Source of the DNA: an uncultured virus (IMG/VR IMGVR_UViG_3300038629_000369)
Taxonomy: Duplodnaviria > Heunggongvirae > Uroviricota > Caudoviricetes
Length of the DNA stretch: 20,000 bases
IMG/VR virus record: IMGVR_UViG_3300038629_000369
Direction: 5' to 3' (one strand)
Shown: positions 1,576 to 19,735 of the stretch, piece by piece
How positions within the stretch are numbered: the stretch's first letter is position 1
Layout of the letters: each line of letters opens with the position of its first letter
Translations under genes and position numbers: made by a program
Notes under the pieces: generated by a model
What the model was told of the DNA's origin: nothing
The model's input: only the letters and a program-made list of their open reading frames with translations
Databases searched by the model: none

Positions 1576-1606
1576 CGCACCCTGCTCGACCGCGGTTGCC
1601 CGTTGC
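1576..1606 (-). promoter_or_regulatory. Repeated promoter-like motif, copy 1
   Basis: Minus strand GCAACGGGCAACCGCG GTCGA GCAG GGTGC|GAG; intergenic. Confidence 0.7.
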
Positions 1607-1630
1607 ATCCGTGGCCGAGCGCGGCGCCAG

Positions 1631-1867
1631 TCAGTCGACGTCGAAATACTTGCAGGCAGTCGCCAGCACGTGGTCGTAGTCGCCACTCAGCATTTCCTTT
1701 TGGAGCGCCGCCATCTGGTCGTGGCTCCAGCGTGCCTTGCGCGCTGCGCGCTTGCAGGCGCTGAGTACGGCGAGGGCGTGGCCGTCCCTTCCGGTCAGTT
1801 CGACTGAGGGCTTGGGGTCGCTGGTGGGAATGGTGGTTTCGGTCACTGCGGTATTCGTATTGCTCAT
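1631..1867 (-). CDS. Conserved small phage/MGE protein, 78 aa
   Basis: Pattern VELTGxDG(H/N)AxAVL...SGDYDHVLAT is typical of a widespread uncharacterised phage family; coupled to its neighbours. Confidence 0.8.
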   Translation of the reverse strand: MSNTNTAVTETTIPTSDPKPSVELTGRDGHALAVLSACKRAARKARWSHDQMAALQKEMLSGDYDHVLATACKYFDVD

Positions 1868-1869
1868 CT

Positions 1870-2016
1870 CTATCCGTTCCTTTCGATGTCACGACGCCAG
1901 CTGTTGCGGGCGTCTTTGCCACGCCGCTTGTTGCGGCTGGTCATGATCTTCATGCGGGGGTGACGCTTACGCATCGCTACCGCATACGGATTGCTCCGTT
2001 TGACGCGGCGTTTCAC
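1870..2016 (-). CDS. Small basic protein, 48 aa (VKRRVKRSNPYAVAMRKRH...)
   Basis: GTG at 2016 overlaps the upstream TGA (GTGA); GAGG upstream; fills the gap exactly. Confidence 0.6.
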   Translation of the reverse strand: MKRRVKRSNPYAVAMRKRHPRMKIMTSRNKRRGKDARNSWRRDIERNG

Positions 2017-2582
2017 GGCCGTGCCTCTGCACTGCACGCCGGGGCGCGCTGGACGCACGGGAGCCCTAGCGCCTCGATGGCGGCGAGCCGTGCTGCATCG
2101 CCCTCGGAGCGGCAGTCTTCCTCGCTGTGGAATCCGCCGCAGCTGTCCACCACATTGCCGTGGCGGTCCTCGATGACGAAACAGTAAATCTCTCCGCGCA
2201 GAAAGCGGTCGTAGTCGTCAACCTCGGCGACGAGGCACTCGGCAGCGCGCGCCAGCTCGACACCGATCTCGGTGAGCCGCTTGGCGGTCGTGTAGATGAC
2301 GCCCACGCGGCCGCTGTCCCAGCGGCAACCGAACGAGGTGGTGCTCATGCTGAGCCCGCTGTGATCCATGAGGTAGAGCGGCAACATGGCCACAGCACCA
2401 CACTCTTTGCGCAGGTGCTGCTCGATGGCTTCCCAGTCATCGAAATCGCTGTGATCCAACGCGAGGTTGTCGTCGCCAAGGCTGTAGCGCTGGTGGAAGC
2501 ACAGCATGGTGCCGACGTTGTCCCATTCGCGCGGCGACATGGGATCGGTGTCTTGCTCGACCCGAAGCTTGAATCTGTGCAT
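2013..2582 (-). CDS. Conserved phage/ICE protein, 189 aa (PREWDN...LPLYLxDHSG...WDSGxVG...DSCxGF family)
   Basis: ATG at 2582 after AGGAG; motif series recognised from uncharacterised phage/ICE proteins. Confidence 0.8.
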   Translation of the reverse strand: MHRFKLRVEQDTDPMSPREWDNVGTMLCFHQRYSLGDDNLALDHSDFDDWEAIEQHLRKECGAVAMLPLYLMDHSGLSMSTTSFGCRWDSGRVGVIYTTAKRLTEIGVELARAAECLVAEVDDYDRFLRGEIYCFVIEDRHGNVVDSCGGFHSEEDCRSEGDAARLAAIEALGLPCVQRAPACSAEARP

Positions 2583-2584
2583 CG

Positions 2585-3205
2585 CTATCTCCTGTTTGCC
2601 TGTTCGTTGAGTACATCGCGCAGCGTCTCGTGCGCAGTGCGCAGCGCCTTGCGTGTGAGCGGCGGCGTAGCCGCGCAGGGGCACGGCCCGTGGATGGGGT
2701 TGGTGTAGAGACACGCGCCCGTTGCCGGGTCGTGGCACGCCGCACCGTGAACGCAGTCACACCTCACCCCATGCTCGGGCGCGGTCGCCCGTTGCTCGGG
2801 GAGCTGCTCATCGGGGAGCTGCTCATCCGGATTCATGTAAACGGTCGCTTGCCAGTGACCCACGACACGCTTGTACGATGGGCCAGTCGACACGAGCTTG
2901 CGCCCAAGGTGTTGTGCCAAGAGCGCAAGCCCCTTCAGGGCGCCCGCGTTGCTGTGAGCGATGACGACCGCCGCGTGGCTGCCGGTGCGAGCGAAAACAA
3001 ATTCAGGTCGGTCACTCACAGCGCCAAAGTGTGGCGCATCTGGAATTCCCATTCCGGGACCGTCGATGTCGACCCGCTCGCCCGGCTCGAATTCGTCGAG
3101 CAGTGACATTGCGTCACGCTCGGTTGGCGTGTACTCGTCTTCGCACCACAACGGAAACGCCATGGTGCCATGTCGATGATGGTAGATCGCAAGCCACAGT
3201 TTCAC
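2585..3205 (-). CDS. Hypothetical protein, 206 aa, possibly a fusion; Cys/His-rich C-terminal module
   Basis: GTG at 3205 overlaps the VWA gene stop; contains a 15-bp tandem duplication (2796-2825) and an internal motif copy (2765-2795). Confidence 0.6.
   Translation of the reverse strand: MKLWLAIYHHRHGTMAFPLWCEDEYTPTERDAMSLLDEFEPGERVDIDGPGMGIPDAPHFGAVSDRPEFVFARTGSHAAVVIAHSNAGALKGLALLAQHLGRKLVSTGPSYKRVVGHWQATVYMNPDEQLPDEQLPEQRATAPEHGVRCDCVHGAACHDPATGACLYTNPIHGPCPCAATPPLTRKALRTAHETLRDVLNEQANRR
2765..2795 (-). promoter_or_regulatory. Repeated promoter-like motif, copy 2 (intragenic)
   Basis: GCAACGGGCGACCGCG CCCGA GCAT GGGGT|GAG. Confidence 0.65.
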
Positions 3206-4359
3206 AGCACAGCTCCTTGCATGGCGCCAATTTCGCCATCGCGCAGCTCCGCGCCGCCGATGGGGATGTATTCCTCCGCACGGGCCCGCAGTGGGTTGTC
3301 GCGGTCGATGGGACACTCCACCGCCACCGTCCAGAGCCGGGCGCCCAGCGCCTCGACGCGGTCGATAGCAGCCGTGTGGCGGCTGGTGATGTCCTCGACA
3401 CCATCCGTGATGAGGATGACGTCGGAGCCCTTGTTACCTTTCTTCGCGAGCCGGTCCACTTCGTCGGCGCCGTTCTCCAGCGCGAGCGCTGCGTCGTTGC
3501 CGCCGCCGAACCAGTGCTTGATCACTTTCATCAATCCGGAAGTGTCACCTACGGGCAGGTCCGTAATGTGCACGGAGCGCGACCAGTGCACCACCGAGCA
3601 GTGCCGTTCGTCCTCCCAAGCGGAGCGCACCAGTGCGATGGTTGCAGCCTTGCACCATTCGCCTCGCTCGCCGCTCATGGATCCCGATTCGTCAGCACAG
3701 ATCACGAGCGGTCCCTTGCTGCCGTCGTCCGTGCCGCGGTACTGGAATTGCAGCGCCTTGTGGTTAGCGAGGTTGTCGAGCAACAGGATCTCGGTCGGTT
3801 GACCGAGGTGAATCAGCTCACTGGGCAGTAGCCGCATGAGGTTGGAGCCCAGCTCCACGCTGTGCAAGTCCTCGGGCGCTGCCGCTACCTGCTCGCTCTT
3901 GGCGCGCTGTAGCTGGGCGAAGATACGTCCCGCCATTTTGGCGATCCGTACCATCTCGTCCGTCTTGTGGTCCGTGCGGAAGTCGCGGGTCGACTCCCAT
4001 GCGTCCGACTCGTCAAAGCCGAGCCCGTATTGGACGTCTGAGGCTTGCTTGGCGCGGTCAGCGAATGCGACCCATGCCTTGCGCGCCAGCTCACGCCGCT
4101 GAAACGGCGTTTCATGCTTGGCCACGTTCCAGTGAGCCCAAAGGCACTTGAGAGCGTAGGCGTTGGCCGTGCCGCCCAGCGCCAACACGCTGGCGTATTC
4201 GGATGGCGCAGTGTCCAGCGCTGCCTCGGTGTACGAGTCCAGCTCCGGGTCGCCGTCGCCCTTCGTGGCCATCCACAGAGCACGGGCCCCCGCGGGGTCC
4301 TGCTGGGCGCAATCGCGCACCACAGAATTGCGCTTACGCGCCTCAGACCATGTAGCCAT
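3202..4359 (-). CDS. VWA-domain protein (ViaA/CoxE-like partner of a MoxR AAA+)
   Basis: MIDAS-like DESGSM, GGGND and ITDG; GSNLMRLLPSEL segment typical of ViaA-like proteins; directly downstream of the ATPase; RBS GGAG (alternative TTG start at 4365). Confidence 0.88.
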   Translation of the reverse strand: MATWSEARKRNSVVRDCAQQDPAGARALWMATKGDGDPELDSYTEAALDTAPSEYASVLALGGTANAYALKCLWAHWNVAKHETPFQRRELARKAWVAFADRAKQASDVQYGLGFDESDAWESTRDFRTDHKTDEMVRIAKMAGRIFAQLQRAKSEQVAAAPEDLHSVELGSNLMRLLPSELIHLGQPTEILLLDNLANHKALQFQYRGTDDGSKGPLVICADESGSMSGERGEWCKAATIALVRSAWEDERHCSVVHWSRSVHITDLPVGDTSGLMKVIKHWFGGGNDAALALENGADEVDRLAKKGNKGSDVILITDGVEDITSRHTAAIDRVEALGARLWTVAVECPIDRDNPLRARAEEYIPIGGAELRDGEIGAMQGAVL

Positions 4360-4394
4360 TTTCAATTTCTCCGTTTGGGCGAGCCACCATGGCT

Positions 4395-4425
4395 CACACC
4401 CTGCTCGGTCGCGGTTGCCCGTTGC
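4395..4425 (-). promoter_or_regulatory. Repeated promoter-like motif, copy 3
   Basis: GCAACGGGCAACCGCG ACCGA GCAG GGTGT|GAG; overlaps a 19-bp-arm inverted repeat at 4400-4442. Confidence 0.7.
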
Positions 4426-4477
4426 AGCCGCGGTCGAGCAGGACGCCGGAGCCGTAGCTCCGAAGCGCCCCTTTGAA

Positions 4478-5692
4478 TCAGACCCGAAGGCCAGCCTTCA
4501 CTTCGTTGGCGAAAGCCGTTTTCATAACGCCCATTTCGCCCATGCGGCGCTTCACCTTGGCAGTGCCGCGCTTACCGAATTCGTTATTCTCGATGCGCTC
4601 TTTTATCGCGTCGCCGAGGTTCACCATTCGGGCGTTCAGCCGCAACAGCTTCGCGGGCCGCTCGGTCGGGTCAGTCGTGACGGCGTGGCCCTCGCGGAGC
4701 AGCTTGTCGATTGACTCGATGGCTTTCGCAGCCTCGCTGCGCTCCAGGGTGCGCAGCACAGCCAGCACCTTTTCACGCTGCTCGGGAGTGTCCCAAAGCA
4801 CGAAGCGCAGGATCTGCATGTGATCCACGTTCACGTCCGACTCGCCATCGAGCCAAGCGGCCGCTTTCAGCGCTTTCAGAAGCTTGACCGCACGACGATC
4901 GCTCATGACGATTCCGTCAGCCGCAAGCTTGCCCTTGATACTACGCAGCACCTTGACGATGTGCGCCGATATGGTGACCGTGTTGACGTCTGCGGCAATG
5001 GCGTCCAGCTCCGCTATGGTGAGCTGACACGGCACCGCGAACGTCGCGAGCGTACCGTCCGCTTTGGCCAGCAGCAGCGCCTCCCAAGCCTTATCGTCTT
5101 GGATGTAGCCGATCACGTCCCGGTACAAGAACCGGTCGTACAGCGCGCCCAGCGAGTCATCCTGTGGAAACTCGTTGCTGGCGCTAAAGCACGATCGCAG
5201 CGGTAGCTGGTGGACGATACCCTGCTCGCTGTATTTGCGCTCGTTGAGCGCGTTGAGCAGAGCGTTGAGGCTCAGCGTGTTCGCTTTCCAGATTTCATCC
5301 AGAAACACGATCTCCGCATCGGCAATGCCGCCAACGAGGTTACGTCGGTACACCTTTTCCAGCTGGAATTTAGCCAGATCCAGCGCTCCGAAAAGCTCGT
5401 CTGGTGTCATTGCCTTGTGCATGAGGCGACCGGCGAATTTGCTCGCCGGCTCCAGGCACTGAACGATCGTATCGATCAGCAGTGACTTGGCAGTGCCAGG
5501 CGGACCCATGGTGAACGTGTGCTCGTTGGTGACGAGCGCGGCGAGTGTCATTTCGACAGCCTCGTCCCGCTCCGTCAGAAACGCGCACATCGCGTCACGG
5601 ATCTGCCAGACTTTGGCACGCGCAGCCTCGACGTCTACGGCCGGAGCCGCTAGCGCCACGGCTGCGTTGCCGTCTGTTGCAGTGGTTTTCAT
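4478..5692 (-). CDS. MoxR-family AAA+ ATPase, RavA-like, 404 aa
   Basis: Walker A GPPGTAKS, Walker B IVFLDEIWKA, LNALLNALNER, sensor I ASNEFP, ALYDRF, sensor II SDRR. Confidence 0.93.
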   Translation of the reverse strand: MKTTATDGNAAVALAAPAVDVEAARAKVWQIRDAMCAFLTERDEAVEMTLAALVTNEHTFTMGPPGTAKSLLIDTIVQCLEPASKFAGRLMHKAMTPDELFGALDLAKFQLEKVYRRNLVGGIADAEIVFLDEIWKANTLSLNALLNALNERKYSEQGIVHQLPLRSCFSASNEFPQDDSLGALYDRFLYRDVIGYIQDDKAWEALLLAKADGTLATFAVPCQLTIAELDAIAADVNTVTISAHIVKVLRSIKGKLAADGIVMSDRRAVKLLKALKAAAWLDGESDVNVDHMQILRFVLWDTPEQREKVLAVLRTLERSEAAKAIESIDKLLREGHAVTTDPTERPAKLLRLNARMVNLGDAIKERIENNEFGKRGTAKVKRRMGEMGVMKTAFANEVKAGLRV

Positions 5693-5722
5693 ATCCAATG
5701 TTCCTCCGCGGTTGCCCGTTGC
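5692..5722 (-). promoter_or_regulatory. Repeated promoter-like motif, copy 4 (predicted +1 is the A of the ATPase ATG)
   Basis: GCAACGGGCAACCGCG GAGGA ACAT TGGAT|ATG. Confidence 0.7.
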
Positions 5723-5898
5723 CAGGCAAGCCACGAATCGAAAATTCAGAGTTGGCAGGATCGCCGTCCCCGATCGGCCCGCCAGGATTCGCAGGGCGTA
5801 TGGCCCTCAAGCGATGTTGCGCTGGTATCGGTCCCCTTTCGAGTGACCTCTACCAGCGATCCTGGCGAACCGATCGCGTGCGGCGAGCACGCTCATGC

Positions 5899-6177
5899 TC
5901 ACATGCCCATGGCACAGATCATGATGTAGCTGGCGAATTCGACCGGGTCGACGTCGCCGTTTTTCTTGTCGAGCGTGAGCTTCGCAATGCGCAGCCAGGG
6001 GCCACGCTGGCGCATCGCCCACGCACGTATCGAGTCGGATTCGACATGTGCGAGCGCTGCCTCTAGCAGCTGTGAGGCGTTGAGCGCGCTCAGCAGAACC
6101 TCGACGTCTACACGCTGGTCGTCCAGCGCTTCGTCGGCCAGGGCCATGGCCCTGGCGTTGTCAGTCTTGGCGCTCAT
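5899..6177 (-). CDS. Hypothetical protein, 92 aa (MSAKTDNA...)
   Basis: ATG overlaps the upstream TGA (ATGA). Confidence 0.65.
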   Translation of the reverse strand: MSAKTDNARAMALADEALDDQRVDVEVLLSALNASQLLEAALAHVESDSIRAWAMRQRGPWLRIAKLTLDKKNGDVDPVEFASYIMICAMGM

Positions 6178-6374
6178 CGCGGTGACAACGGCGGCAGATC
6201 GCCGCACGCCTTTCGGAAGCGTTCCACGTCGAAACGCGGGTTGTTCTCGCGACCCATGTAGATCGCCAGACTCACCATGCCGCGGATGAAAGCATCATTT
6301 AGCTCATCCTTGCCAGGCTTGACGCTGTGCGCGCGGATGTAGTCCGCCATCGCAACGAAATGCTTGCGTGTCAT
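6174..6374 (-). CDS. Conserved small phage protein, 66 aa (MTRKHF...NPRFDxERFxKAC)
   Basis: Strong RBS GAAAGGGG; motif typical of a widespread small phage family. Confidence 0.8.
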   Translation of the reverse strand: MTRKHFVAMADYIRAHSVKPGKDELNDAFIRGMVSLAIYMGRENNPRFDVERFRKACGDLPPLSPR

Positions 6375-6412
6375 TCGGATTTCCCCTTTCCGTGGGAGTG
6401 ATTGTAGTCGTG

Positions 6413-6443
6413 TCTCGCATGCGCCACAACGGTTGCCCGTTGC
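6413..6443 (-). promoter_or_regulatory. Repeated promoter-like motif, copy 5
   Basis: GCAACGGGCAACCGTT GTGGC GCAT; intergenic. Confidence 0.65.
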
Positions 6444-6487
6444 GGCCCATGAGGCACGCGGCTACGCGCTACGCAGGTTGCGCGGGC

Positions 6488-6775
6488 TCATCGCCAGCTG
6501 TCCAAGTCGCGAGCCAGCGCGGCGCGCTGTGCGTCGGCGATGTCATCCCGGTCGCATGGGAAGCAATCGGTCGCATAGCCGGCGCAGCACCCGAGCGTGT
6601 GACCGCACGTGCCGCAGCAATAGCCGCGCCACGTGTCGTCGTGCTGGTCCAGCTCCAGAATGGGCGATCCCCACCCCTCGCAATACTCCGGCAGCTTGTG
6701 TGCCGGTTCTACGCAGCCGTCACAGTAGGTCTGGCCGTCAAACAGCCACCCCACGACGCCAACGCCGGCGCTCAT
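6488..6775 (-). CDS. Cys-rich putative Zn-binding phage protein, 95 aa
   Basis: YCDGC, CGTC and CFPC motifs; ATGA overlap with the upstream gene. Confidence 0.7.
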   Translation of the reverse strand: MSAGVGVVGWLFDGQTYCDGCVEPAHKLPEYCEGWGSPILELDQHDDTWRGYCCGTCGHTLGCCAGYATDCFPCDRDDIADAQRAALARDLDSWR

Positions 6776-7293
6776 AGCGACCTCACAGCGCGGGGGGCGC
6801 TGGCGGTGACGATGGCGGCCGTCTGGAGCTTCGCGACGAGTGCGAAGCGATGCGCGGCGTTCGGGGTAATGTCGCCGTCCTCGGCGACGTGGCGCGGCCG
6901 GTAGGTCGGATGCGACGGCACCACGCTCGATGAGGCAGCGACGTTGCGCATGCGGGCAATCCCGGCGCAGCCTTGCACCTTTTGTGCCGCCTTGCTCATG
7001 TCGTTGAGTAGGACGGCATGGGGGCGCGGCTCGATTGCCGCGACGGCCGCGGTAGTCGGCTCAGGTGCCGGCTCAGGTGCCGGCTCAGGTGCCGGCTCAG
7101 GTGCCGGCTCAGGTGCCGGTGGCGCCTGGAGCGCGGCGTAGCGCGCCGTCAGCTCGCCAAAGTCGCCATACGAGCGGCTCTCGTATTGAGCCCTCGCAAG
7201 GGAGCTTGGAGCGGCGAGCGCTTGCGCTTCGTGCACGCCCTTGAAGGGCTTGCCATCACGCAGCGTTACCCGCCGGTATGTGTTTTCGTTCAT
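6772..7293 (-). CDS. Hypothetical protein with (APEP)5 linker, 173 aa; first gene of the left arm
   Basis: ATG at 7293 after GAGGA; in-frame 12-bp tandem repeat. Confidence 0.65.
   Translation of the reverse strand: MNENTYRRVTLRDGKPFKGVHEAQALAAPSSLARAQYESRSYGDFGELTARYAALQAPPAPEPAPEPAPEPAPEPAPEPTTAAVAAIEPRPHAVLLNDMSKAAQKVQGCAGIARMRNVAASSSVVPSHPTYRPRHVAEDGDITPNAAHRFALVAKLQTAAIVTASAPRAVRSL
7057..7119. repeat. 12-bp tandem repeat CGGCTCAGGTGC x5
   Basis: Five exact units at 7057-7116 plus CGG; encodes APEP on the minus strand. Confidence 0.97.
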
Positions 7294-7304
7294 GTTGTTG
7301 TCCT

Positions 7305-7384
7305 CACCACATGCTGTGTCGCGGCGGCTCGTTGCCGCCCTGTGCCGTGGTCTCACCCTATGCTGTGTCGCGGGTGCCCGTTGT
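7305..7384 (-). promoter_or_regulatory. Two tandem leftward motif copies (7305-7335, 7354-7384)
   Basis: GCAACGAGCCGCCGCG ACACA GCAT GTGGT|GAG and ACAACGGGCACCCGCG ACACA GCAT AGGGT|GAG. Confidence 0.65.
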
Positions 7385-7394
7385 CTTCGCGGCG

Positions 7395-7472
7395 TTATGC
7401 GTTACGGTAATTAGTCATACGTTACGATAATACTCATACGTTACGGTAATTCACATTATCGTAACGTATGAG
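7395..7472. repeat. AT-rich hub: four 17-bp elements TCATACGTTACG(G/A)TAAT, three direct (7395, 7415, 7434) and one inverted (7455-7471)
   Basis: Read directly; elements 3 and 4 form a 40-bp imperfect palindrome (7433-7472) at the exact point of transcriptional divergence. Confidence 0.93.
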
Positions 7473-7482
7473 ACCGTTCGCC

Positions 7483-7561
7483 GCAACCGGCAGCCGCGAC
7501 ACAACATGAGGTGACAGCACCGACACGGAGTCAACGGGGCGCCGCGACGGAGCATCACTTG
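7483..7561 (+). promoter_or_regulatory. Two tandem rightward motif copies (7483-7513, 7531-7561)
   Basis: GCAACCGGCAGCCGCG ACACA ACAT GAGGT|GAC and TCAACGGGGCGCCGCG ACGGA GCAT CACTT|GAG. Confidence 0.6.
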
Positions 7562-7597
7562 AGACACACACACAGCGCTGCGGCGCAACGGAGCAAC

Positions 7598-7927
7598 ATG
7601 AACAACTGTATCTTCAAGAACACCAAGCGCGGCGGCAAGCGCGTCGTGATGGGCCCCACCTCACTCGTGAAGGCGGGCGCCACCGTCACGGTGGACGGCG
7701 CCGACGTCGCCATCGACTCGGTCGGTCGCTCCTTCGAGCGTAGCGGCGTCGAATGCTGCTACGGCTACGGCGACTTCCCCAACGTCGCCGCGACCGCCGG
7801 GACCACGGCCCCCGCTGCCACCGACGAAATCGCTCAGCTTCGCGCTGAGGTCGCCGCTTCGGCCGCACAGGTCGCACAACTGCTCAGAGCGCTCGGCGCT
7901 GAGCAGGACGCTGCCGGGCCCGTCTAG
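7598..7927 (+). CDS. Hypothetical protein, 109 aa (MNNCIFKN...), C-terminal coiled coil; first gene of the right arm
   Basis: ATG at 7598 after GGAG; strong GC3 bias. Confidence 0.75.
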   Translation: MNNCIFKNTKRGGKRVVMGPTSLVKAGATVTVDGADVAIDSVGRSFERSGVECCYGYGDFPNVAATAGTTAPAATDEIAQLRAEVAASAAQVAQLLRALGAEQDAAGPV

Positions 7928-7988
7928 CAGCAACACAACCCAGGACGCTGGGCCCCTCGTGGGCCCTGCCTCCTGGCCGGTGCCCGTG

Positions 7989-8288
7989 TCAACGGGCATC
8001 CGCCAGGGTGCATGACGCATCTGCCATAAGGAGGCGCTCTCTTAGCGCAACGCGAGCCCGTCAACGGGTGTCCGCGAGGGTGCATGACGCATCCGAACAA
8101 CCCACAAGCGAAAGGTGGACCCCATGGTCGCCCCCATCGCAACCGCACGGCCTTCCCTGGAGGGTGCGCGAGCTTAACGGGCGCTACACGTAACCAAAGT
8201 GCGGTAGGCCGCACAAGGCAGAGGGCTTTCGAGCCCCCTCACGGGGATCCGCTGACTGCAACGGGTCTCCGTGAGGGCGCACGACGGG
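7989..8288 (+). promoter_or_regulatory. Three variant motif copies (7989-8019, 8061-8091, 8258-8288) in a structured non-coding stretch
   Basis: TCAACGGGCATCCGCC AGGGT GCAT GACGC|ATC; TCAACGGGTGTCCGCG AGGGT GCAT GACGC|ATC; GCAACGGGTCTCCGTG AGGGC GCAC. Confidence 0.55.
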
Positions 8289-8443
8289 AGGAATACACTT
8301 CCTGCCCCCGATCGTCTGCAACAACCACTTGCGCCATGCCGCTTAGCCGCGGCCGCTGGCGTAGAGATGTGAGCTGGACGTACCGGGGTGTCAAAGTGAC
8401 AACGGCCGTCGTGCGTCCTGCTTTTTTGGAAAGGACAACTCCA

Positions 8444-8692
8444 TTGCAACACACACAAATCCGACCGGGCGTCGTGAAACGCTCCCGGATCGTCACGGCG
8501 CTTCGGCGCGACGCGCGTGAGCGCGGCGTCGAGCTGGTATTCGACAGCCTCTGCTGGATCGTCTGGTATCGGTTCGCCGGCCGCAAGGTCAAGGCGGACA
8601 CCTACCGCTGCCCGCATACCGCACGAGCGGCCGCGAGCAAGCTCAACACCCTGCCCGCGCTGGATGCGTGGGTCACACGCTCCACCCGGTAA
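8444..8692 (+). CDS. Small basic hypothetical protein, about 82 aa
   Basis: TTG at 8444 after GGAAAGGA; 3' part of track ORF 8084..8692; start uncertain. Confidence 0.55.
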   Translation: MQHTQIRPGVVKRSRIVTALRRDARERGVELVFDSLCWIVWYRFAGRKVKADTYRCPHTARAAASKLNTLPALDAWVTRSTR

Positions 8693-8792
8693 CAACCGGC
8701 CAACAATCCAAACAACGGAGGTCCACCATTCGTTAGGTCTCGTGGGGACATACGGGCGCGCTGCCCCGCTTAAATAACCGGCGCGTCCACAC

Positions 8793-8880
8793 CGCACGTC
8801 TCGCCAATAAGGCTCCGGGTAGGAGCGCCTGAACAGGGTCGGCGAGGCTCGACAGGGTTCGACTCCCTGGCGTGCGACCA
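8793..8880 (+). ncRNA. tRNA-like RNA A (acceptor stem, T-arm, encoded CCA; no canonical anticodon arm)
   Basis: CGCACGT/GCGTGCG 7-bp stem, discriminator A plus CCA, T-arm CAGGG-TTCGACT-CCCTG. Confidence 0.65.
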
Positions 8881-9009
8881 TTCGTGTGCTCAAGCAGGGG
8901 CATGAGGACCGTGGGGAGACACCACCGGCTAAGAGAGGCCAGTGTCGGCCAGACCTCCGCTAGTGCTCCACGTGCAGGTTCGATTCCTGCCCCCGCTTGA
9001 GCACACGAA
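8881..9009 (+). ncRNA. tRNA-like RNA B (T-arm on a 19-bp closing stem with one bulge)
   Basis: TTCGTGTGCTCAAGC(A)GGGG pairs with CCCCGCTTGAGCACACGAA; T-arm GCAGG-TTCGATT-CCTGC at 8974-8990. Confidence 0.6.
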
Positions 9010-9051
9010 CAAAACACGCTAATCTCAAAACCTCAAAAAAAGGGGAACACC

Positions 9052-9225
9052 ATGTCGGTCACTGATCTGGCCGCGCTCGTATCGTCGATTCCGACGCATA
9101 CGGATGCGTGGCTTGCGTCACTGCACCCGAACATGGCGGGCGTCGACAGCATTGCGCTGTTCTGCGTCGCCGTGATCTCATTGCTAGGCTCGCGAGCAAT
9201 CGCGGGACGGAACTACAACCCATAG
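9052..9225 (+). CDS. Small membrane protein, 57 aa (below the ORF-track cutoff)
   Basis: RBS AAAGGGGA; hydrophobic SIALFCVAVISLLG segment. Confidence 0.65.
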   Translation: MSVTDLAALVSSIPTHTDAWLASLHPNMAGVDSIALFCVAVISLLGSRAIAGRNYNP

Positions 9226-9270
9226 CGACCTGCGTCCAGCCTTCGGCTGGGCGCCTCGCTGGATGCTGTG

Positions 9271-9301
9271 GCAACGGGCAACCGCGACGCAGCATCGAGC
9301 G
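9271..9301 (+). promoter_or_regulatory. Repeated promoter-like motif copy, enclosed by a 19-bp inverted repeat (9252-9306)
   Basis: GCAACGGGCAACCGCG ACGCA GCAT CGAGC|GAG. Confidence 0.7.
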
Positions 9302-9352
9302 AGGCGAGGCAATCCTGCCACGTCTCAGTTTCCGGAAAGGGGAACAGTAACC

Positions 9353-10480
9353 ATGACAAGTCATGTCACGCTGGAGACTCCAGCAGAGACACGCGACCGC
9401 TGCAAAGCGCACGGTGCCGAGTGGCTCGGCGATCGGCTGTCCTTTCGACAGGCGGGCGCTAGCTACAAGCGCAACGTGGTCCGCGGCGTCTTCGATGCTC
9501 ACGGCTACGGCAAGCATCTGCCTGCGGAGCCCAAGCCCGAGGCACAGCTCAAGCGAGCGGGCCGCGAGGGCCGCACGCCCAAGGGCTACATCACGCGACC
9601 GTTCGTGTCGCACAACCCCGACACGCCCATGGCGATCCATATCACCAAGGTCAGCGGCTCGGATGAGACCGGCGACAGCTACGACTGCCGCGCTCGGGTG
9701 CGCATCGCGCACCGTCTCGACCCCGTCACCGGGCTTGCGGAGCCGTTCGCGGTGGCCAAGCCCCCCGAGGGCCAGACCGAATTCACGGACCTCACGGCCC
9801 GCGACCGGGCCATCTGGATTGCCAATCATTGCAACGTGTTGTTGCACGAAGCGCAGAACAAGGATCTGGGTCTCTGGATCCGCTCGGTCTACACCGGCGT
9901 AGGCGCTGCTCAAGCGCTCGGCGGTGGAAACAACTACTGGGTGCCATCGGTCCTCTGCGACTCGATGCACGCCCTCATGGTGGACCTGGCCACACGGTTC
10001 GGCGTCCACTACGAACGCGACCCCAAGACCACCTTGGGAGCCCCGCACACCAAAGCGCTGTTCGCTCAAGCGGCCCAGCGCTCGCTGAGTGAGAGCGTGG
10101 CCGAAATGCGGGACGAGCTGCTCACCGCCGTCGAAAAGAGCGGTGGCAAGCGCAAGCGCAACGCCAGCAACCAGCACCAGCTCGACCGGCTCGAATCGCT
10201 GGGCGACAATATCGTGATGTGGAAAGACATCGTCGCTGAGCAGATCACCGGGCCCATGGCCGAGGTGTGCGAGCTGTATCGACAGCACTTCAACACGCTG
10301 ATCGACGGCGGCGAGGTCAAGCTCGACGACGACGACGGCGACGAGGGCGGCAACGCGCCGCCCGCGCCCAGCAGCGAGGGCTTCGCCCCCGCCAGCGAGC
10401 CGCCCGCGCAAGCGAGCGGCGAAGCGGTGCTCGCCGCGGCCGCCGCGGGCGACCCCGACCTCGACTGGCTCAACTGCTGA
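9353..10480 (+). CDS. Hypothetical phage protein, 375 aa, acidic low-complexity tail; possibly DUF6744/DUF3150-like
   Basis: ATG after GGAAAGGGG; strong GC3 bias; the GGGNNYWVP segment recalls that family (weak). Confidence 0.8.
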   Translation: MTSHVTLETPAETRDRCKAHGAEWLGDRLSFRQAGASYKRNVVRGVFDAHGYGKHLPAEPKPEAQLKRAGREGRTPKGYITRPFVSHNPDTPMAIHITKVSGSDETGDSYDCRARVRIAHRLDPVTGLAEPFAVAKPPEGQTEFTDLTARDRAIWIANHCNVLLHEAQNKDLGLWIRSVYTGVGAAQALGGGNNYWVPSVLCDSMHALMVDLATRFGVHYERDPKTTLGAPHTKALFAQAAQRSLSESVAEMRDELLTAVEKSGGKRKRNASNQHQLDRLESLGDNIVMWKDIVAEQITGPMAEVCELYRQHFNTLIDGGEVKLDDDDGDEGGNAPPAPSSEGFAPASEPPAQASGEAVLAAAAAGDPDLDWLNC

Positions 10481-10492
10481 GCCATCCCGATT

Positions 10493-10522
10493 CCCCAGCG
10501 CGCCGCTCGCGGTGCGCTGGGG
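10493..10522 (+). terminator. GC-rich 13-bp hairpin after the 375-aa gene (no U tract)
   Basis: CCCCAGCGCGCCG-CTCG-CGGTGCGCTGGGG. Confidence 0.4.
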
Positions 10523-10612
10523 CGTCTAAGAGTGCCGTCAAGCGGCCCTTTCCGTCACGTGTGTTGTGTCTACTTTCTGCTTTCCGCAACCGCTTGACGG
10601 CACCCTTAGACG
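10523..10612. repeat. 23-bp inverted repeat (1 mismatch) around a 44-nt spacer
   Basis: CGTCTAAGAGTGCCGTCAAGCGG ... CCGCTTGACGGCACCCTTAGACG. Confidence 0.9.
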
Positions 10613-10644
10613 TTCAAACCATCACCCCGAAAGCACCAATCGCA

Positions 10645-10821
10645 ATGTGTCAATGGATCGGCTGGACCCGCGGCTACGTGGGGCACGCATGGCTCAACGG
10701 AGAGCTGAGCACAGCAGAGCTGCACGACCACTGCACCGGTTTCGAGTACCTGCGCGCACAGCATGACCGCTATGTGGAACGGCTCGTGTCGCGCTACGAC
10801 CGAAGGGACATATCGAGATGA
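10645..10821 (+). CDS. Hypothetical protein, 58 aa
   Basis: ATG at 10645; stop overlaps the next ATG (ATGA); weak RBS. Confidence 0.5.
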   Translation: MCQWIGWTRGYVGHAWLNGELSTAELHDHCTGFEYLRAQHDRYVERLVSRYDRRDISR

Positions 10822-11051
10822 GCAAGAAAATTCTGCATACCCAGCTACTGGGGCGCCGCGTCAAGTTCGACGACGGTATCAACGACAAGATCGCCGGCGA
10901 GACGGCTACCATCCGGTCGGTCTTTATCGATCGTGAAAGCGGCGATCCGATCTACAGCGTCGAGTTGGATGACGGGCGACTATTCGAGGGAGCCACGTCG
11001 ACATTCTTCACCCTGTTACAAGAGCAGCTCGACGATGAGGTATCGCGATGA
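10818..11051 (+). CDS. Small protein, possible SH3-like beta-barrel, 77 aa
   Basis: RBS GAAGGGA; LGRRVKF...G...YSVELDDG pattern. Confidence 0.75.
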   Translation: MSKKILHTQLLGRRVKFDDGINDKIAGETATIRSVFIDRESGDPIYSVELDDGRLFEGATSTFFTLLQEQLDDEVSR

Positions 11052-11335
11052 GCGACAACCTCATGACCGAGCGCATCTACATGGCCATCGGTGGCCACGG
11101 CTGGGGCAAGGGCCTTAGCGCCGACGAGGCGAAGCGCCAGGCGCGCCAGCGCGCAAAGCGCGGCACCCGCTTGCGCGTCTACCGGCTGCCACGTGGCGCG
11201 CACAGCGCCTACGTTAACGAGATGGGTGACCTGCGCTGGCTTTTTCAGGACGGCGCCGACACCGAGGCTCAGGCCGAATTGGTGGAGCCCCGGCCGCGAG
11301 TGCAACGGGCAACCGCGACGGAGCATGGGGCATGA
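11048..11335 (+). CDS. Hypothetical protein, 95 aa
   Basis: GAGG RBS; ATGA coupling at both ends. Confidence 0.75.
   Translation: MSDNLMTERIYMAIGGHGWGKGLSADEAKRQARQRAKRGTRLRVYRLPRGAHSAYVNEMGDLRWLFQDGADTEAQAELVEPRPRVQRATATEHGA
11302..11332 (+). promoter_or_regulatory. Repeated promoter-like motif copy (predicted +1 is the A of ATG 11332)
   Basis: GCAACGGGCAACCGCG ACGGA GCAT GGGGC|ATG. Confidence 0.7.
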
Positions 11336-11529
11336 CCACTATCGAGCTGACCGCCGACGAGCTGCACGTCATCACGGGCGCGCTGCGCGTGGCCGGCACG
11401 CAGTACGACAGGGACGCAAAAGATATGCGCTTCAGTGTCCCCGTTAACGAGCGGCTAGTGGAACAATTCGACCGCCAAGCGAGCGACGCGCGGCAGCTTC
11501 TCGAACGACTGGAGAATCTCGATGACTGA
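11332..11529 (+). CDS. Small helical hypothetical protein, 65 aa
   Basis: Coupled to both neighbours. Confidence 0.7.
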   Translation: MTTIELTADELHVITGALRVAGTQYDRDAKDMRFSVPVNERLVEQFDRQASDARQLLERLENLDD

Positions 11530-12166
11530 ACTACTCGACTGGGGACTGCGACACGCGGTGCCCAAGCACGCACCCGTCGCGTGGGGCGCTCGCGCCATCA
11601 TCCACGACGGCGGACAGACCTTTGAGCTGCTGGGCGACCGCCAGCAGATGGTTGGGGCGCCCGCGCTCCGCAAGGCACTGGGTCGCGCCATGAACGGCGC
11701 CGATGGCAAGCAGGACGGCTACCTCGCGAAAGCGCAGGCCGAGTACCGCGAACTGTCACTGTTCGGCGGGCTGCGCTGGAGCAGCGAGGGTGAGGTGCAG
11801 CTCGTGCACGACCACCACGTGTGCATCCAGGCCGACCCCCGCGGCAGTTTTGGATACCTGTACGTCGCCGCGTGGTTCGACGCTGACGACATCGACACGA
11901 GCGACGCTGTTTGCTACGGCACCGAGGGCTACGGCGACGACGCCACGCCCCTCAAGTGGTCGCACAGCGAGCCGCCGCCAGCGATCGGCGAAGACCGAGA
12001 CTTCGGGCTGCGCGTCGGTCGCGCCACCGTGGTGGGCTACCGCGAGACACACGGCTTCCTGATGGCGCTCGTGGTTCCCTACGAGGCTTTCTGTAATCCC
12101 GACCGCTTGCCCGTCGTGGCCGTCTACGGCTGCGACATCGTCGAGCCTGAAAGCGAGGCATCCTGA
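11522..12166 (+). CDS. CbeA/YeeU (YagB/YfjZ)-like type IV antitoxin domain plus a C-terminal extension of about 95 aa
   Basis: WGL...WGARAI...LLGDR...G and IQADPRGSFGYLYVAAW align by eye with YeeU WGL...FGARLV...LADR...G and CEADTLxSCGYVYLAVY. Confidence 0.7.
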   Translation: MTELLDWGLRHAVPKHAPVAWGARAIIHDGGQTFELLGDRQQMVGAPALRKALGRAMNGADGKQDGYLAKAQAEYRELSLFGGLRWSSEGEVQLVHDHHVCIQADPRGSFGYLYVAAWFDADDIDTSDAVCYGTEGYGDDATPLKWSHSEPPPAIGEDRDFGLRVGRATVVGYRETHGFLMALVVPYEAFCNPDRLPVVAVYGCDIVEPESEAS

Positions 12167-12620
12167 TGAGCTGGAACAAGCTAGTCGAAAACCTGCGCAG
12201 GCTCATCGTTGCGCGTGTCGAAGAACGCGACCTGGACCTCAACACGGTGCTGAGCATCGTGCAAAGCGCTGAGATGAGAAACGTCATGGTGGACGCCACG
12301 GAGGAATACCAACGCCTCTGCGCGACCGACATCGTGAAGAAGCTGGCGCACGTGGCTGAGCAGAAGCGCTGCGCGTGGATGCGCTCCGAGCTGGCAAGCG
12401 CCGCCGACTACTGCGGCAACGCGCTCCAAGCGTGGCAGTGGCACGAGGACGAAGCGCAGCGCAAGCTCGCGCTGGGCGAGTGCTTGTGCTGCGCGGCCGT
12501 GGCCGCGCACACCGAGGCCCGCTACGAGCGCTGCCCCGAGTGCGGCAAAACGCAACCGGAGCCGAATCCGGACGACGCGCCGCATCCCCCCAACGACCTA
12601 GAAAGTGAGGCATCCTGATG
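12149..12620. repeat. 20-bp direct repeat GAAAG(C/T)GAGGCATCCTGATG at 12149-12168 and 12601-12620
   Basis: 19/20 identical; two consecutive proteins both end in ESEAS. Confidence 0.9.
12166..12618 (+). CDS. Hypothetical protein with C-terminal Zn ribbon, 150 aa
   Basis: CLCC...CPECG; TGATG coupling at both ends. Confidence 0.75.
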   Translation: MSWNKLVENLRRLIVARVEERDLDLNTVLSIVQSAEMRNVMVDATEEYQRLCATDIVKKLAHVAEQKRCAWMRSELASAADYCGNALQAWQWHEDEAQRKLALGECLCCAAVAAHTEARYERCPECGKTQPEPNPDDAPHPPNDLESEAS

Positions 12621-12947
12621 GCTGTAATCATCTACCCCAACGGTAGCGACGCGCCCATGGCGCCGCCTGCGAACGGCAAGAGCTACACGCTCGCCGAGAT
12701 GTACGCCGCCATCGGTTGCGACATGGTGCAATCCGTGCGCATTACCAACGACGACGTGCTGCTCATGGACGAGGAAGCGAAGCTGCCCCGCAACGGGCAA
12801 CCGCGGCCCAGCGTCAACGTGAGAGCGACCGGCATGGCCAGCGGCGTGCTGCGCTTCGGCGACAAGATCATCGGCACCGTAGTGCACGTCCGGCTCACTG
12901 AGTCCGGCGACTGGGTGCCGCTCACAAAGGAAGGGACATCCGAATGA
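12618..12947 (+). CDS. DUF3846-like phage protein, 109 aa
   Basis: TLAEMYAAIGC..VQ.V...LLMDEEAKL...NVRAT...IIGTVV pattern. Confidence 0.75.
   Translation: MAVIIYPNGSDAPMAPPANGKSYTLAEMYAAIGCDMVQSVRITNDDVLLMDEEAKLPRNGQPRPSVNVRATGMASGVLRFGDKIIGTVVHVRLTESGDWVPLTKEGTSE
12790..12820 (+). promoter_or_regulatory. Repeated promoter-like motif copy (intragenic)
   Basis: Exact GCAACGGGCAACCGCG then GCCCA GCGT. Confidence 0.55.
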
Positions 12948-18999: not shown

Positions 19000-19482
19000 A
19001 TGCCTACGGTTCAACAGTTGATGGAGTGGATGCGAAGTGGCGAGGGGCGGCTCATCGCAGCCGCCGTGCTCTACATTCTGATGTGGCTGCTCAAGGCTCA
19101 CGTGCCGATCGTTGAGAAGTGGCTTCAGACAGACGGAAAGCTCAACAGTAAGCGCAAAAAGGCGCTCGCCAACGTCGTGCTCGCCATGGCTCCGGTGGCC
19201 GTGGTACTCACCGACACCAGTCAGTCCGTCACCGAGGCATTCTGGTTGGCGGTAGGCACCGCGACGAGCGCTGGCGGCATTCACAGCTTCGGTAAAGCGC
19301 TGCTGCACAAGCCCAAGGCGTCCGAGTCTGCGAAGTCTGAGCCCGACCCCGGCGAGCCCGACAAGGAGAGCGACGATGACGGCGACGAGGCAGCTGAGGC
19401 TAGCAAAGACGACGGCTCAGCCGACGACACCAGACGCACCGAGCCAGCTGCCGGCGACGAAGCCTCCAGCGACGAGAGCTGA
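19000..19482 (+). CDS. Holin-like membrane protein with acidic tail, 160 aa
   Basis: ATG after AGGAG; two to three hydrophobic segments; directly follows the lysin. Confidence 0.65.
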   Translation: MPTVQQLMEWMRSGEGRLIAAAVLYILMWLLKAHVPIVEKWLQTDGKLNSKRKKALANVVLAMAPVAVVLTDTSQSVTEAFWLAVGTATSAGGIHSFGKALLHKPKASESAKSEPDPGEPDKESDDDGDEAAEASKDDGSADDTRRTEPAAGDEASSDES

Positions 19483-19735
19483 CTGCGAGTACGGCCCGCG
19501 GCCGTGTCCCTACTACACATGCCGCCACCATTTGTGGATGGATCGCCGAGTCGTCCGGCTGGATGAGCTTCCCGCGGATACCTGTTCGCTTGATGTTGCC
19601 AAGGAAGGCGGGGCGACGCTCGGTCGCGTGGGTGTTGTGTTTGGTCTGACGCGCGAACGCATCCGTCAAATCGAGGCCATCGCGATACGTAAGCTTGAGA
19701 TGCGTGGCGTGCACCTGCGTGTTTTCTTCTACTAG
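19376..19735 (+). CDS. Stand-alone sigma70 region 4 HTH protein with N-terminal Cys/His motif, 119 aa
   Basis: TLGRVGVVFGLTRERIRQIEAIAIRKL matches sigma70 region 4.2; TRADC...RPCPYYTCRHHL...C; AAGGAG 7 nt upstream of the ATG. Confidence 0.85.
   Translation: MTATRQLRLAKTTAQPTTPDAPSQLPATKPPATRADCEYGPRPCPYYTCRHHLWMDRRVVRLDELPADTCSLDVAKEGGATLGRVGVVFGLTRERIRQIEAIAIRKLEMRGVHLRVFFY

Follow-up and report, generated by a model that had tools for sequence, protein, structure and literature searches.

Circular genomes that replicate and recombine give rise to dimers and concatemers. In phage P1, a tailed phage with a terminase, Cre keeps the circular genome monomeric by acting at loxP, a 13-8-13 site without accessory repeats. 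The central region of loxP is 8 bp (PMC2847244, in the part cited here). According to the same part of that source, the TnpI/IRS system of Tn4430 uses a single tyrosine recombinase on inverted core motifs that lie 4 bp apart, with a 6-bp stagger, and two direct repeats (DR1-DR2) allow synapsis only between head-to-tail sites, which makes the system selective for resolution. Xer recombinases, which have a role in unlinking circle multimers, act on sites in which two arms, each of about 11 bp, flank a 6-bp centre (XerH/difH, XerA and XerS); as far as the cited part of PMC5241119 goes, dif lies on the cell chromosome, depends on FtsK and lacks accessory repeats. The integron site attI1, on which IntI1 acts, combines an L/R inverted core with direct repeats DR1 and DR2 (PMC8946536, cited in part). 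Baculovirus VLF-1, an integrase-family protein found in the nucleocapsid of a large circular dsDNA virus, has a proposed role in turning replication intermediates into circles of unit length, by a mechanism that the cited portion of PMC6669607 calls unclear.

The locus described here is a block of four repeats in the window analysed, a stretch of 20,000 nucleotides that forms the last 20 kb of a 72,395-bp virus record (G000) rated 57% complete. At up to 3 mismatches, TCATACGTTACGRTAAT occurs in the window at 7395-7411 (+), 7415-7431 (+), 7434-7450 (+) and 7455-7471 (-); shuffled controls gave a mean of 0.01 matches, and four matches in 0/200 shuffles. A sequence-only reading had described four 17-mers, and all four are present, but copy 1 is inexact, with 2 mismatches (0 in copies 2, 3 and 4). 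The three direct copies start 20 and then 19 bases apart, in line with the 19-20 bp given in that reading for the two extra copies to the left; the fourth copy is inverted and separated from the third by 4 bp. Copies 3 and 4 are the predicted left and right core binding sites, whose arms at 7439-7449 (TAA end) and 7456-7466 (TTA start) enclose a non-palindromic 6-bp spacer at 7450-7455. The 11-6-11 core at 7439-7466, TAA-N6-TTA, thus reads as first reported. The spacer is the predicted strand-exchange region, with cleavage placed there on the geometry of Xer and TnpI. Copies 1 and 2 form the distal and proximal accessory direct repeats, with 11-bp arms at 7400-7410 and 7420-7430, 39 and 19 bases before the core arm. 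A variant in run X7 has a sole change in copy 2, 7427 A>G, to the other consensus letter. The block is 77 bases long (7395-7471) with a GC content of 34%, and the lowest-GC 80 bases of the whole record fall in it. A search for other copies of the 17-mer, proposed in the sequence-only reading, found none outside the four-repeat block at up to 4 mismatches in the 72,395-bp record.

As in TnpI/IRS, inverted motifs 4 bp apart (17-mers in the present block) are accompanied by two direct copies beside them, both here and in the relative G001 and several metagenome sites. IRS, as far as its source describes it, is 116 bp long, has 14-bp core motifs and belongs to a Tn3-family transposon, whereas the 77-bp block is tightly packed and viral; small viral genes flank it, and no scanned G000 protein matched a transposase. 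The candidate recombinase also differs from TnpI in being encoded 37 kb away and in being about four times the usual length, and the accessory layout varies among relatives. The block shares with difH and the XerA and XerS sites a 6-bp centre between arms of about 11 bp and, by our proposal, the role in unlinking circle multimers, and the nearest solved homologues of the recombinase are XerD and XerA; in contrast to dif, as described in the cited part of PMC5241119, the block has accessory repeats and lies in a viral record. It resembles attI1 in its inverted core plus two direct repeats, yet no integrase gene is adjacent and no half-site remnants occur elsewhere in the record, which also rules out cassette shuffling. 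Like Cre/loxP it would involve a virus-encoded tyrosine recombinase as monomer keeper, but the spacer is 6 bp (7 in G007 and G011) and accessory repeats are present. VLF-1 is a loose precedent: it comes from a eukaryotic virus and no defined site is given in the cited part of PMC6669607, whereas a candidate site is defined here. On these comparisons the block would work like TnpI/IRS, or like a single-recombinase dif equipped with accessory sites, while being a member of neither.

Genes on both sides are transcribed outward from the block. The first left-arm gene (6772..7293, minus strand, 173 aa) and the first right-arm gene (7598..7927, plus strand, 109 aa) are without a Pfam match. Between these genes and the block lie four copies of a 24-base motif that resembles a promoter and may act as one: inner and outer leftward copies at 7360..7383 (-) and 7311..7334 (-), and inner and outer rightward copies at 7484..7507 (+) and 7532..7555 (+). 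The inner copies start at 7383 (-) and 7484 (+), 11 and 12 bases from the block, and the outer ones at 7334 and 7532, another 49 and 48 bases away; these positions agree with the 11-12 and 48-49 bp first reported. At up to 6 mismatches the motif has 19 copies, 12 leftward and 7 rightward, all pointing outward from the hub.

Such a setting invites the view that the block is an operator array only, on which a repressor or activator bound to the four repeats controls both gene arms. On each side, 11-12 bases separate the block from the inner motif copy downstream of it; almost all relatives have the site between divergent genes; each 17-mer is centred on a 7-bp near-palindrome; and a sigma-70 region 4 protein is encoded within the window. 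However, the 15 other motif copies lack such a repeat upstream, and the sigma region 4 family occurs in just 1/4 circular site-bearing genomes and 2/7 sister genomes. An operator needs no fixed TAA-N6/7-TTA geometry with a free spacer, which also counts against an operator-only role. Because no regulator tracks the site (small genes being incompletely annotated, and repressors below 120 aa lying outside the Pfam scan), we regard this explanation as very unlikely. A protein bound to the block may affect the flanking promoters.

Several other features of the region were noted. The 19 motif copies span window positions 1605-12791 and G000:36756-65186; four minus-strand copies and one plus-strand copy lie exactly 29 bases before a start codon, the middle of the motif is unusually conserved for a promoter spacer, and the same motif flanks the G001 site. 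A gene-poor stretch at window 7980-8093 holds two more copies 72 bases apart, one of them inside a 28-bp inverted repeat. Within the first left-arm gene, a 12-bp tandem repeat (window 7057-7119) codes for a Pro-Glu-Pro-Ala run and breaks assemblies in several runs. A MoxR AAA ATPase and vWA gene pair lies near the hub at window 3202-5734 (-), as it also does in G001, G003 and several metagenome loci. The 119-aa protein with the sigma-70 region 4 domain (window 19376-19735, +) is not conserved across relatives. No tRNA genes were found in G000:1-54000.

The sequence-only reading stated that no cognate protein is in the window, which is true of the window; the same contig, however, encodes a candidate, and the contig search for a tyrosine recombinase that it recommended found it at G000:19133-23113. 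The product, of 1,326 aa, matches PF00589 (Phage_integrase) at residues 325-505 (E 1.4e-14). Residues R343, K368, H467, R470, H492 and Y501, which we take to be the tyrosine-recombinase catalytic set, are invariant in 39/39 aligned homologues, and the alignment to XerD is consistent with this assignment. Among solved structures, XerD and XerA match best (E about 2e-18) and IntI4 is weaker. The protein is unlike XerC, XerD, XerA and XerS in scoring far below the cut-offs of the Xer families (48-56 bits against 220-335, for example 55.9 against 335), in an insertion of about 110 residues in its N-terminal domain, and in its long C-terminal extension. These C-terminal residues, some 690-800 in number, had no match in ESM Atlas or Pfam, which implies neither novelty nor absence. 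Homologues of similar length numbered 41 proteins in one search and 81 clusters at 50% identity in another (E <= 1e-30), and a single-sequence search returned none. In 5/5 records tested there is exactly one PF00589 match, and in 0/5 a match to the serine resolvase family PF00239, for which the positive control matched in 12/14 genomes. The gene lies 13.7-47.3 kb from the site in 8/8 records measured and, in G000 and G003, is located within or next to the virion-gene block. In G001 it has one early in-frame TAG although the site is intact; the stop may be genuine and interrupt the gene, or it may be an error. Most of the giant recombinases also keep a C-terminal Asn-Pro (residues 1307-1308) followed by a Pro-rich hydrophobic tail, which could, speculatively, serve as a virion-targeting signal.

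The site was then sought in relatives that carry this gene. An alignment gave 14 viral loci; 11 of these records were fetched whole, making 13 together with G013 and G000. G005, L015 and L017 (10-20-kb fragments with the gene), G016 and G017 lay outside the fetched set. The search rule made no use of the arm sequence; it required inverted 11-bp arms (up to 2 mismatches), a spacer of 5-8, inner TAA/TTA (up to 1 mismatch) and, no more than 60 bp away, another copy of the arm. It was drawn up after 8 records had been seen; out of sample were G007, scored by the rule as fixed beforehand, G013 and the sister viruses described below. The site is present in 10/13 records (G000, G001, G002, G003, G006, G007, G009, G011, G012 and G013), corresponding to 9 distinct ones because G002 duplicates G003. 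Each has it at a single locus, intergenic and between divergent genes, with divergence only local in G006 and G012; one site per genome rules out Flp-type inversion. The three misses are fragments, namely G004, a part of G003 in which the region is missing, and G008 and G010, of 28 and 47 kb.

The arms and accessory copies vary around this constant plan. Wholly different arms occur in G007 (TCTGGAAGTAA, with a 7-bp spacer and an extra copy at +42) and in G009 (CGGGCTCATAA, extra copy at -41), and a first PWM scan missed both because their arms differ. The spacer is 7 bp in G007 and G011 and 6 otherwise. Every family site has accessory copies; relatives repeatedly show a further copy of the arm at 30-42 bases from the core, and three layouts occur: direct copies at -19/-20 and -39/-41 in G000, G001 and others; a lone direct copy at -30/-32 in G006; and, in G003, G011, G012 and G013, a second and less exact inverted pair at a distance of 40-42 bases. 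Arms and protein distance show no simple match; G013, 33% identical, keeps the G000 arms, which G007 and G009, 37-40% identical, do not have. A comparison of the DNA-contact helix with the arms gave no clear covariation, and an 8-protein tree did not settle the branching.

A blind scan with the degenerate core pattern matched 5 viral contigs, comprising 4 already known and G013, which was found by DNA pattern alone and encodes a 1,279-aa homologue of the recombinase (E 4.8e-42). The exact G000 core pattern had 0 matches in viral contigs. When the spacer was allowed to range over 1-14, viral contigs gave 8 matches, five with spacer 6, two (both low-GC records) with 7 and one with 10; the chance expectation for viral-contig matches is 0.06-0.5 on an assumed collection size. 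Among metagenome contigs, 9/22 core matches lie among homologues of the viruses' genes, and 9/9 of these carry one more copy of the arm, at a distance of 30-41 bases; 2 further short contigs have the layout without gene evidence, and the remaining 11/22 are unrelated. We aligned the sites, leaving out the 11 unrelated metagenome matches and the near-duplicates L067, L078, L081, L084 and L089. In 14/14 aligned sites all spacers are different, and 0/14 are palindromic. The majority-letter frequency is 0.44 in the spacer compared with 0.88-0.90 in the arms, whose conservation among pattern-found sites is partly built in by the search design. A free spacer of fixed length has the look of a crossover region, because XerH barely contacts the central region of its site (PMC5241119, in the part cited).

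The same observations bear on a hairpin telomere, that is, a protelomerase site of a linear prophage. A long near-symmetric hub together with a tyrosine-recombinase-like enzyme is what such a telomere would offer, but none of the 14 spacers is palindromic and the palindrome is not continuous through the centre; the recombinase shows the usual H-x-x-R and His-Tyr set and matches XerD/XerA, with no protelomerase among its 14 solved matches; and the contigs of 8 runs contain no strand-changing joints. We consider this reading extremely improbable.

Nearly identical repeats also occur outside the group. The unrelated low-GC phages L087, L093 and L118-L120 carry direct as well as inverted copies of the same arm sequence, which precede a gene that we take to encode a VirE-like primase, and the one low-GC phage searched lacks such a recombinase. 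Three Bacillales genomes (L121, L122 and L130) carry a bare 11-6-11 palindrome of the same consensus, followed after 15-45 bases by a gene that is presumably serine-recombinase-like. The palindrome alone is not diagnostic, because near-identical repeats occur in these unrelated phages and Bacillales genomes.

As a control, sister viruses were chosen by the conserved capsid candidate, blind to site and recombinase, and 9/11 were fetched. An intergenic core with an extra copy was found in 0/9 of these records, the one match lying inside a coding repeat of G023, and the giant recombinase is absent too. Seven sisters have instead a single short recombinase (306-345 aa) of another kind, Xer-like in G022 and G026; those of G019, G020, G021, G023 and G025 form a group that we take, from their motifs, to be Cre-like. 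Among the 22 families common to the 4 circular site-bearing genomes, the giant recombinase alone is absent from 7/7 large sisters. Since the sisters form one clade (bootstrap 100), the match between presence and absence of gene and site counts as a single evolutionary event. Genomes rated at least 90% complete have one tyrosine recombinase each (2/2 and 3/3), in keeping with a required function that different enzymes can supply. The sister-clade recombinase has the appearance of a non-orthologous replacement. A near-perfect 13-6-13 palindrome with inner TAA/TTA lies between divergent genes at G021:22734-22761 and is a candidate site for the short Cre-like recombinase of that virus; among the Cre-like sisters, lox-like sites were sought and a candidate was found in G021 only.

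Taken together, the candidate on the contig, the one-per-genome geometry with a free spacer, the blind prediction of G013 and the gene profile bear out the earlier suggestion of a tyrosine-recombinase site. From this comparative evidence, the virus's own Xer-like recombinase, of 1,326 aa, very probably acts on the block. What the recombinase does there is a separate matter, for which resolution, circularisation and integration had all been put forward; resolution fits best and integration least.

If the block were the attP of a temperate virus, the genome would integrate at a matching host core, and the direct repeats would stimulate this step, as they do at attI1. The attI1 layout is the same, with L/R plus DR1/DR2 (PMC8946536, as cited in part), and the collection classes G001 as a provirus. 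The site in G001 is whole, however, with viral genes on both sides; the gene lies 14-47 kb from the site; and a search of genome_contigs with a single peptide pattern confirmed no relative of the recombinase. No host was found there, and cluster names were uninformative. The 10 core matches in genome_contigs have no family genes nearby and are close in number to the chance expectation of 1-6. Spacers differ at every site, although a match to attB would constrain the spacer within one host only. Because of the gene distance, the whole site in the provirus-classed G001 and the lack of a host match, integration appears quite unlikely.

Cre in P1 also circularises the terminally redundant genome after entry. 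The same recombinase and site could act in this way on linear DNA here, or open a circle at the spacer and stay attached to the ends. The hub does resemble two genome ends joined head to head, with 19/19 motifs outward, and the recombinase gene lies inside the virion-gene block. On the other hand, contigs of 6 runs (X1, which is possibly where this DNA comes from, X2, X3, X5, X6 and X7) cross the core without joints or loose ends, a weak argument because contigs drop rare forms; four relatives circularise at unrelated positions; and the accessory sites suit an intramolecular filter. Junctions or breaks at 7450-7455, for which the sequence-only reading had recommended a search, were not seen: in all contigs of 8 of 13 runs there is no joint or loose end at the core, and of 3 low-GC phage records of another kind none ends at a half-site. 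This continuity says nothing on resolution, because resolution leaves the sequence unchanged. We judge action on linear DNA to be unlikely.

The preferred reading is that the recombinase uses the block to resolve dimers and concatemers into monomer circles, which seems reasonably probable. Two subunits would bind the core arms and exchange strands across 7450-7455. Further subunits on the accessory copies would permit a synapse only between head-to-tail sites on one molecule, so that deletion would win over fusion, as has been shown for TnpI/IRS. The monomer circles would be the packaged genomes, as suggested by the lack of a terminase or packaging ATPase among the proteins searched and by the position of the gene by the virion-gene block in G000 and G003. 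If no enzyme cuts the DNA to unit length as it is packaged, monomer circles would have to be made beforehand; the place of the gene, within or next to the virion-gene block, also suggests late action.

The group likely consists of large, tailless prokaryotic viruses. G003, G009, G012 and G013 are circular (110-182 kb, with end repeats of 108-141 bases), and G000 shares 24 genes with G003, although the capsid gene is absent from the G000 fragment. No terminase, portal or HK97 capsid was found among 84 (Pfam) and 33 (PHROGs) of the 222 predicted G003 proteins, and motif scans and family searches found no FtsK-HerA packaging ATPase in them, a result that a divergent motor could escape. Within the shared families, the Walker A motif is confined to DnaB and its loader. 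A conserved 251-aa G003 protein is predicted to be a single jelly-roll capsid protein; its model is one beta-sandwich (pLDDT 80, or 32 when modelled without an alignment). The capsid protein of SPV1 was the top match in both fold searches, at a middling level (Foldseek E 0.022; Z 6.9, rmsd 3.5, 137 aligned), and the nearest named Atlas clusters, PM2 P2 and PRD1 P3, are leads only. SPV1 (Portogloboviridae) has a single jelly-roll capsid protein and, in the cited part of PMC8812541, is described as lacking a packaging ATPase; viruses of this kind appear to assemble around the genome (PMC5894146, cited in part). Unlike SPV1, the present viruses have genomes of 110-182 kb with bacterial-type genes, and the capsid match is middling. 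The predicted jelly-roll protein leads a conserved three-gene block (G003:35513-38460 and relatives) with 655 homologues, which marks a large group of 110-182-kb viruses without a cultured match. No cultured phage among 50,697 records matched the capsid protein or the recombinase.

Replication genes bear on one further alternative, in which the block is an origin: its repeats would be iterons, spaced two helical turns apart in the most AT-rich part of the record, and would be bound by a viral initiator or primase-helicase. The 19-20-bp spacing and the record's lowest GC agree with this, as does the position of the same arms just upstream of the primase-like gene in the low-GC phages. DnaB and loader families, however, are also present in sisters that have no site. 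The replication modules of site-bearing genomes are non-orthologous (primase-helicase fusion, DnaG plus VapE, or DnaB) and lie 33-67 kb from the site in the 4 circular relatives; none was seen in the 57%-complete G000 fragment. Since these modules differ, are distant and have repeats of their own (the G003 and G011 tracts), an origin is highly improbable. The repressor operator and the iterons, both raised in the sequence-only reading, are thus weakened, the former by the gene profile and the latter by the distance to the replication modules. Origin-like tracts of short repeats and AT- or A-rich runs lie beside or inside replication genes at G003:22350-22650, G011:7650-8000 and G009:162950-163560. 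Intergenic regions of G009 also have a palindromic motif repeated at several divergent promoters, likely an operator separate from the recombination site.

The chemistry proposed for the block is known, and what is new is the protein family and the virus group, for which the literature searched, covering few subscription journals, held no earlier description. The giant tyrosine recombinases form an undescribed family, accompanied by nine distinct candidate sites, which differ in arm sequence (three kinds) and in accessory layout (at least three); these sites make the design of the topological filter testable and offer orthogonal recombinase-site pairs. Resolution at the block would bear on how unit-length genomes arise in a virus of more than 100 kb that has neither a terminase nor a packaging ATPase, the same step that is left unexplained for VLF-1 in the cited part of PMC6669607. 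More tentatively, and we regard this extension as doubtful, site-specific recombination may have replaced the terminase altogether, with the 1,200-1,400-aa Xer-like protein excising unit circles and its C-terminal domain of about 800 residues handing them to the virion. If that is true, the site would be res and pac at once, in widespread uncultured single-jelly-roll viruses of 110-182 kb.
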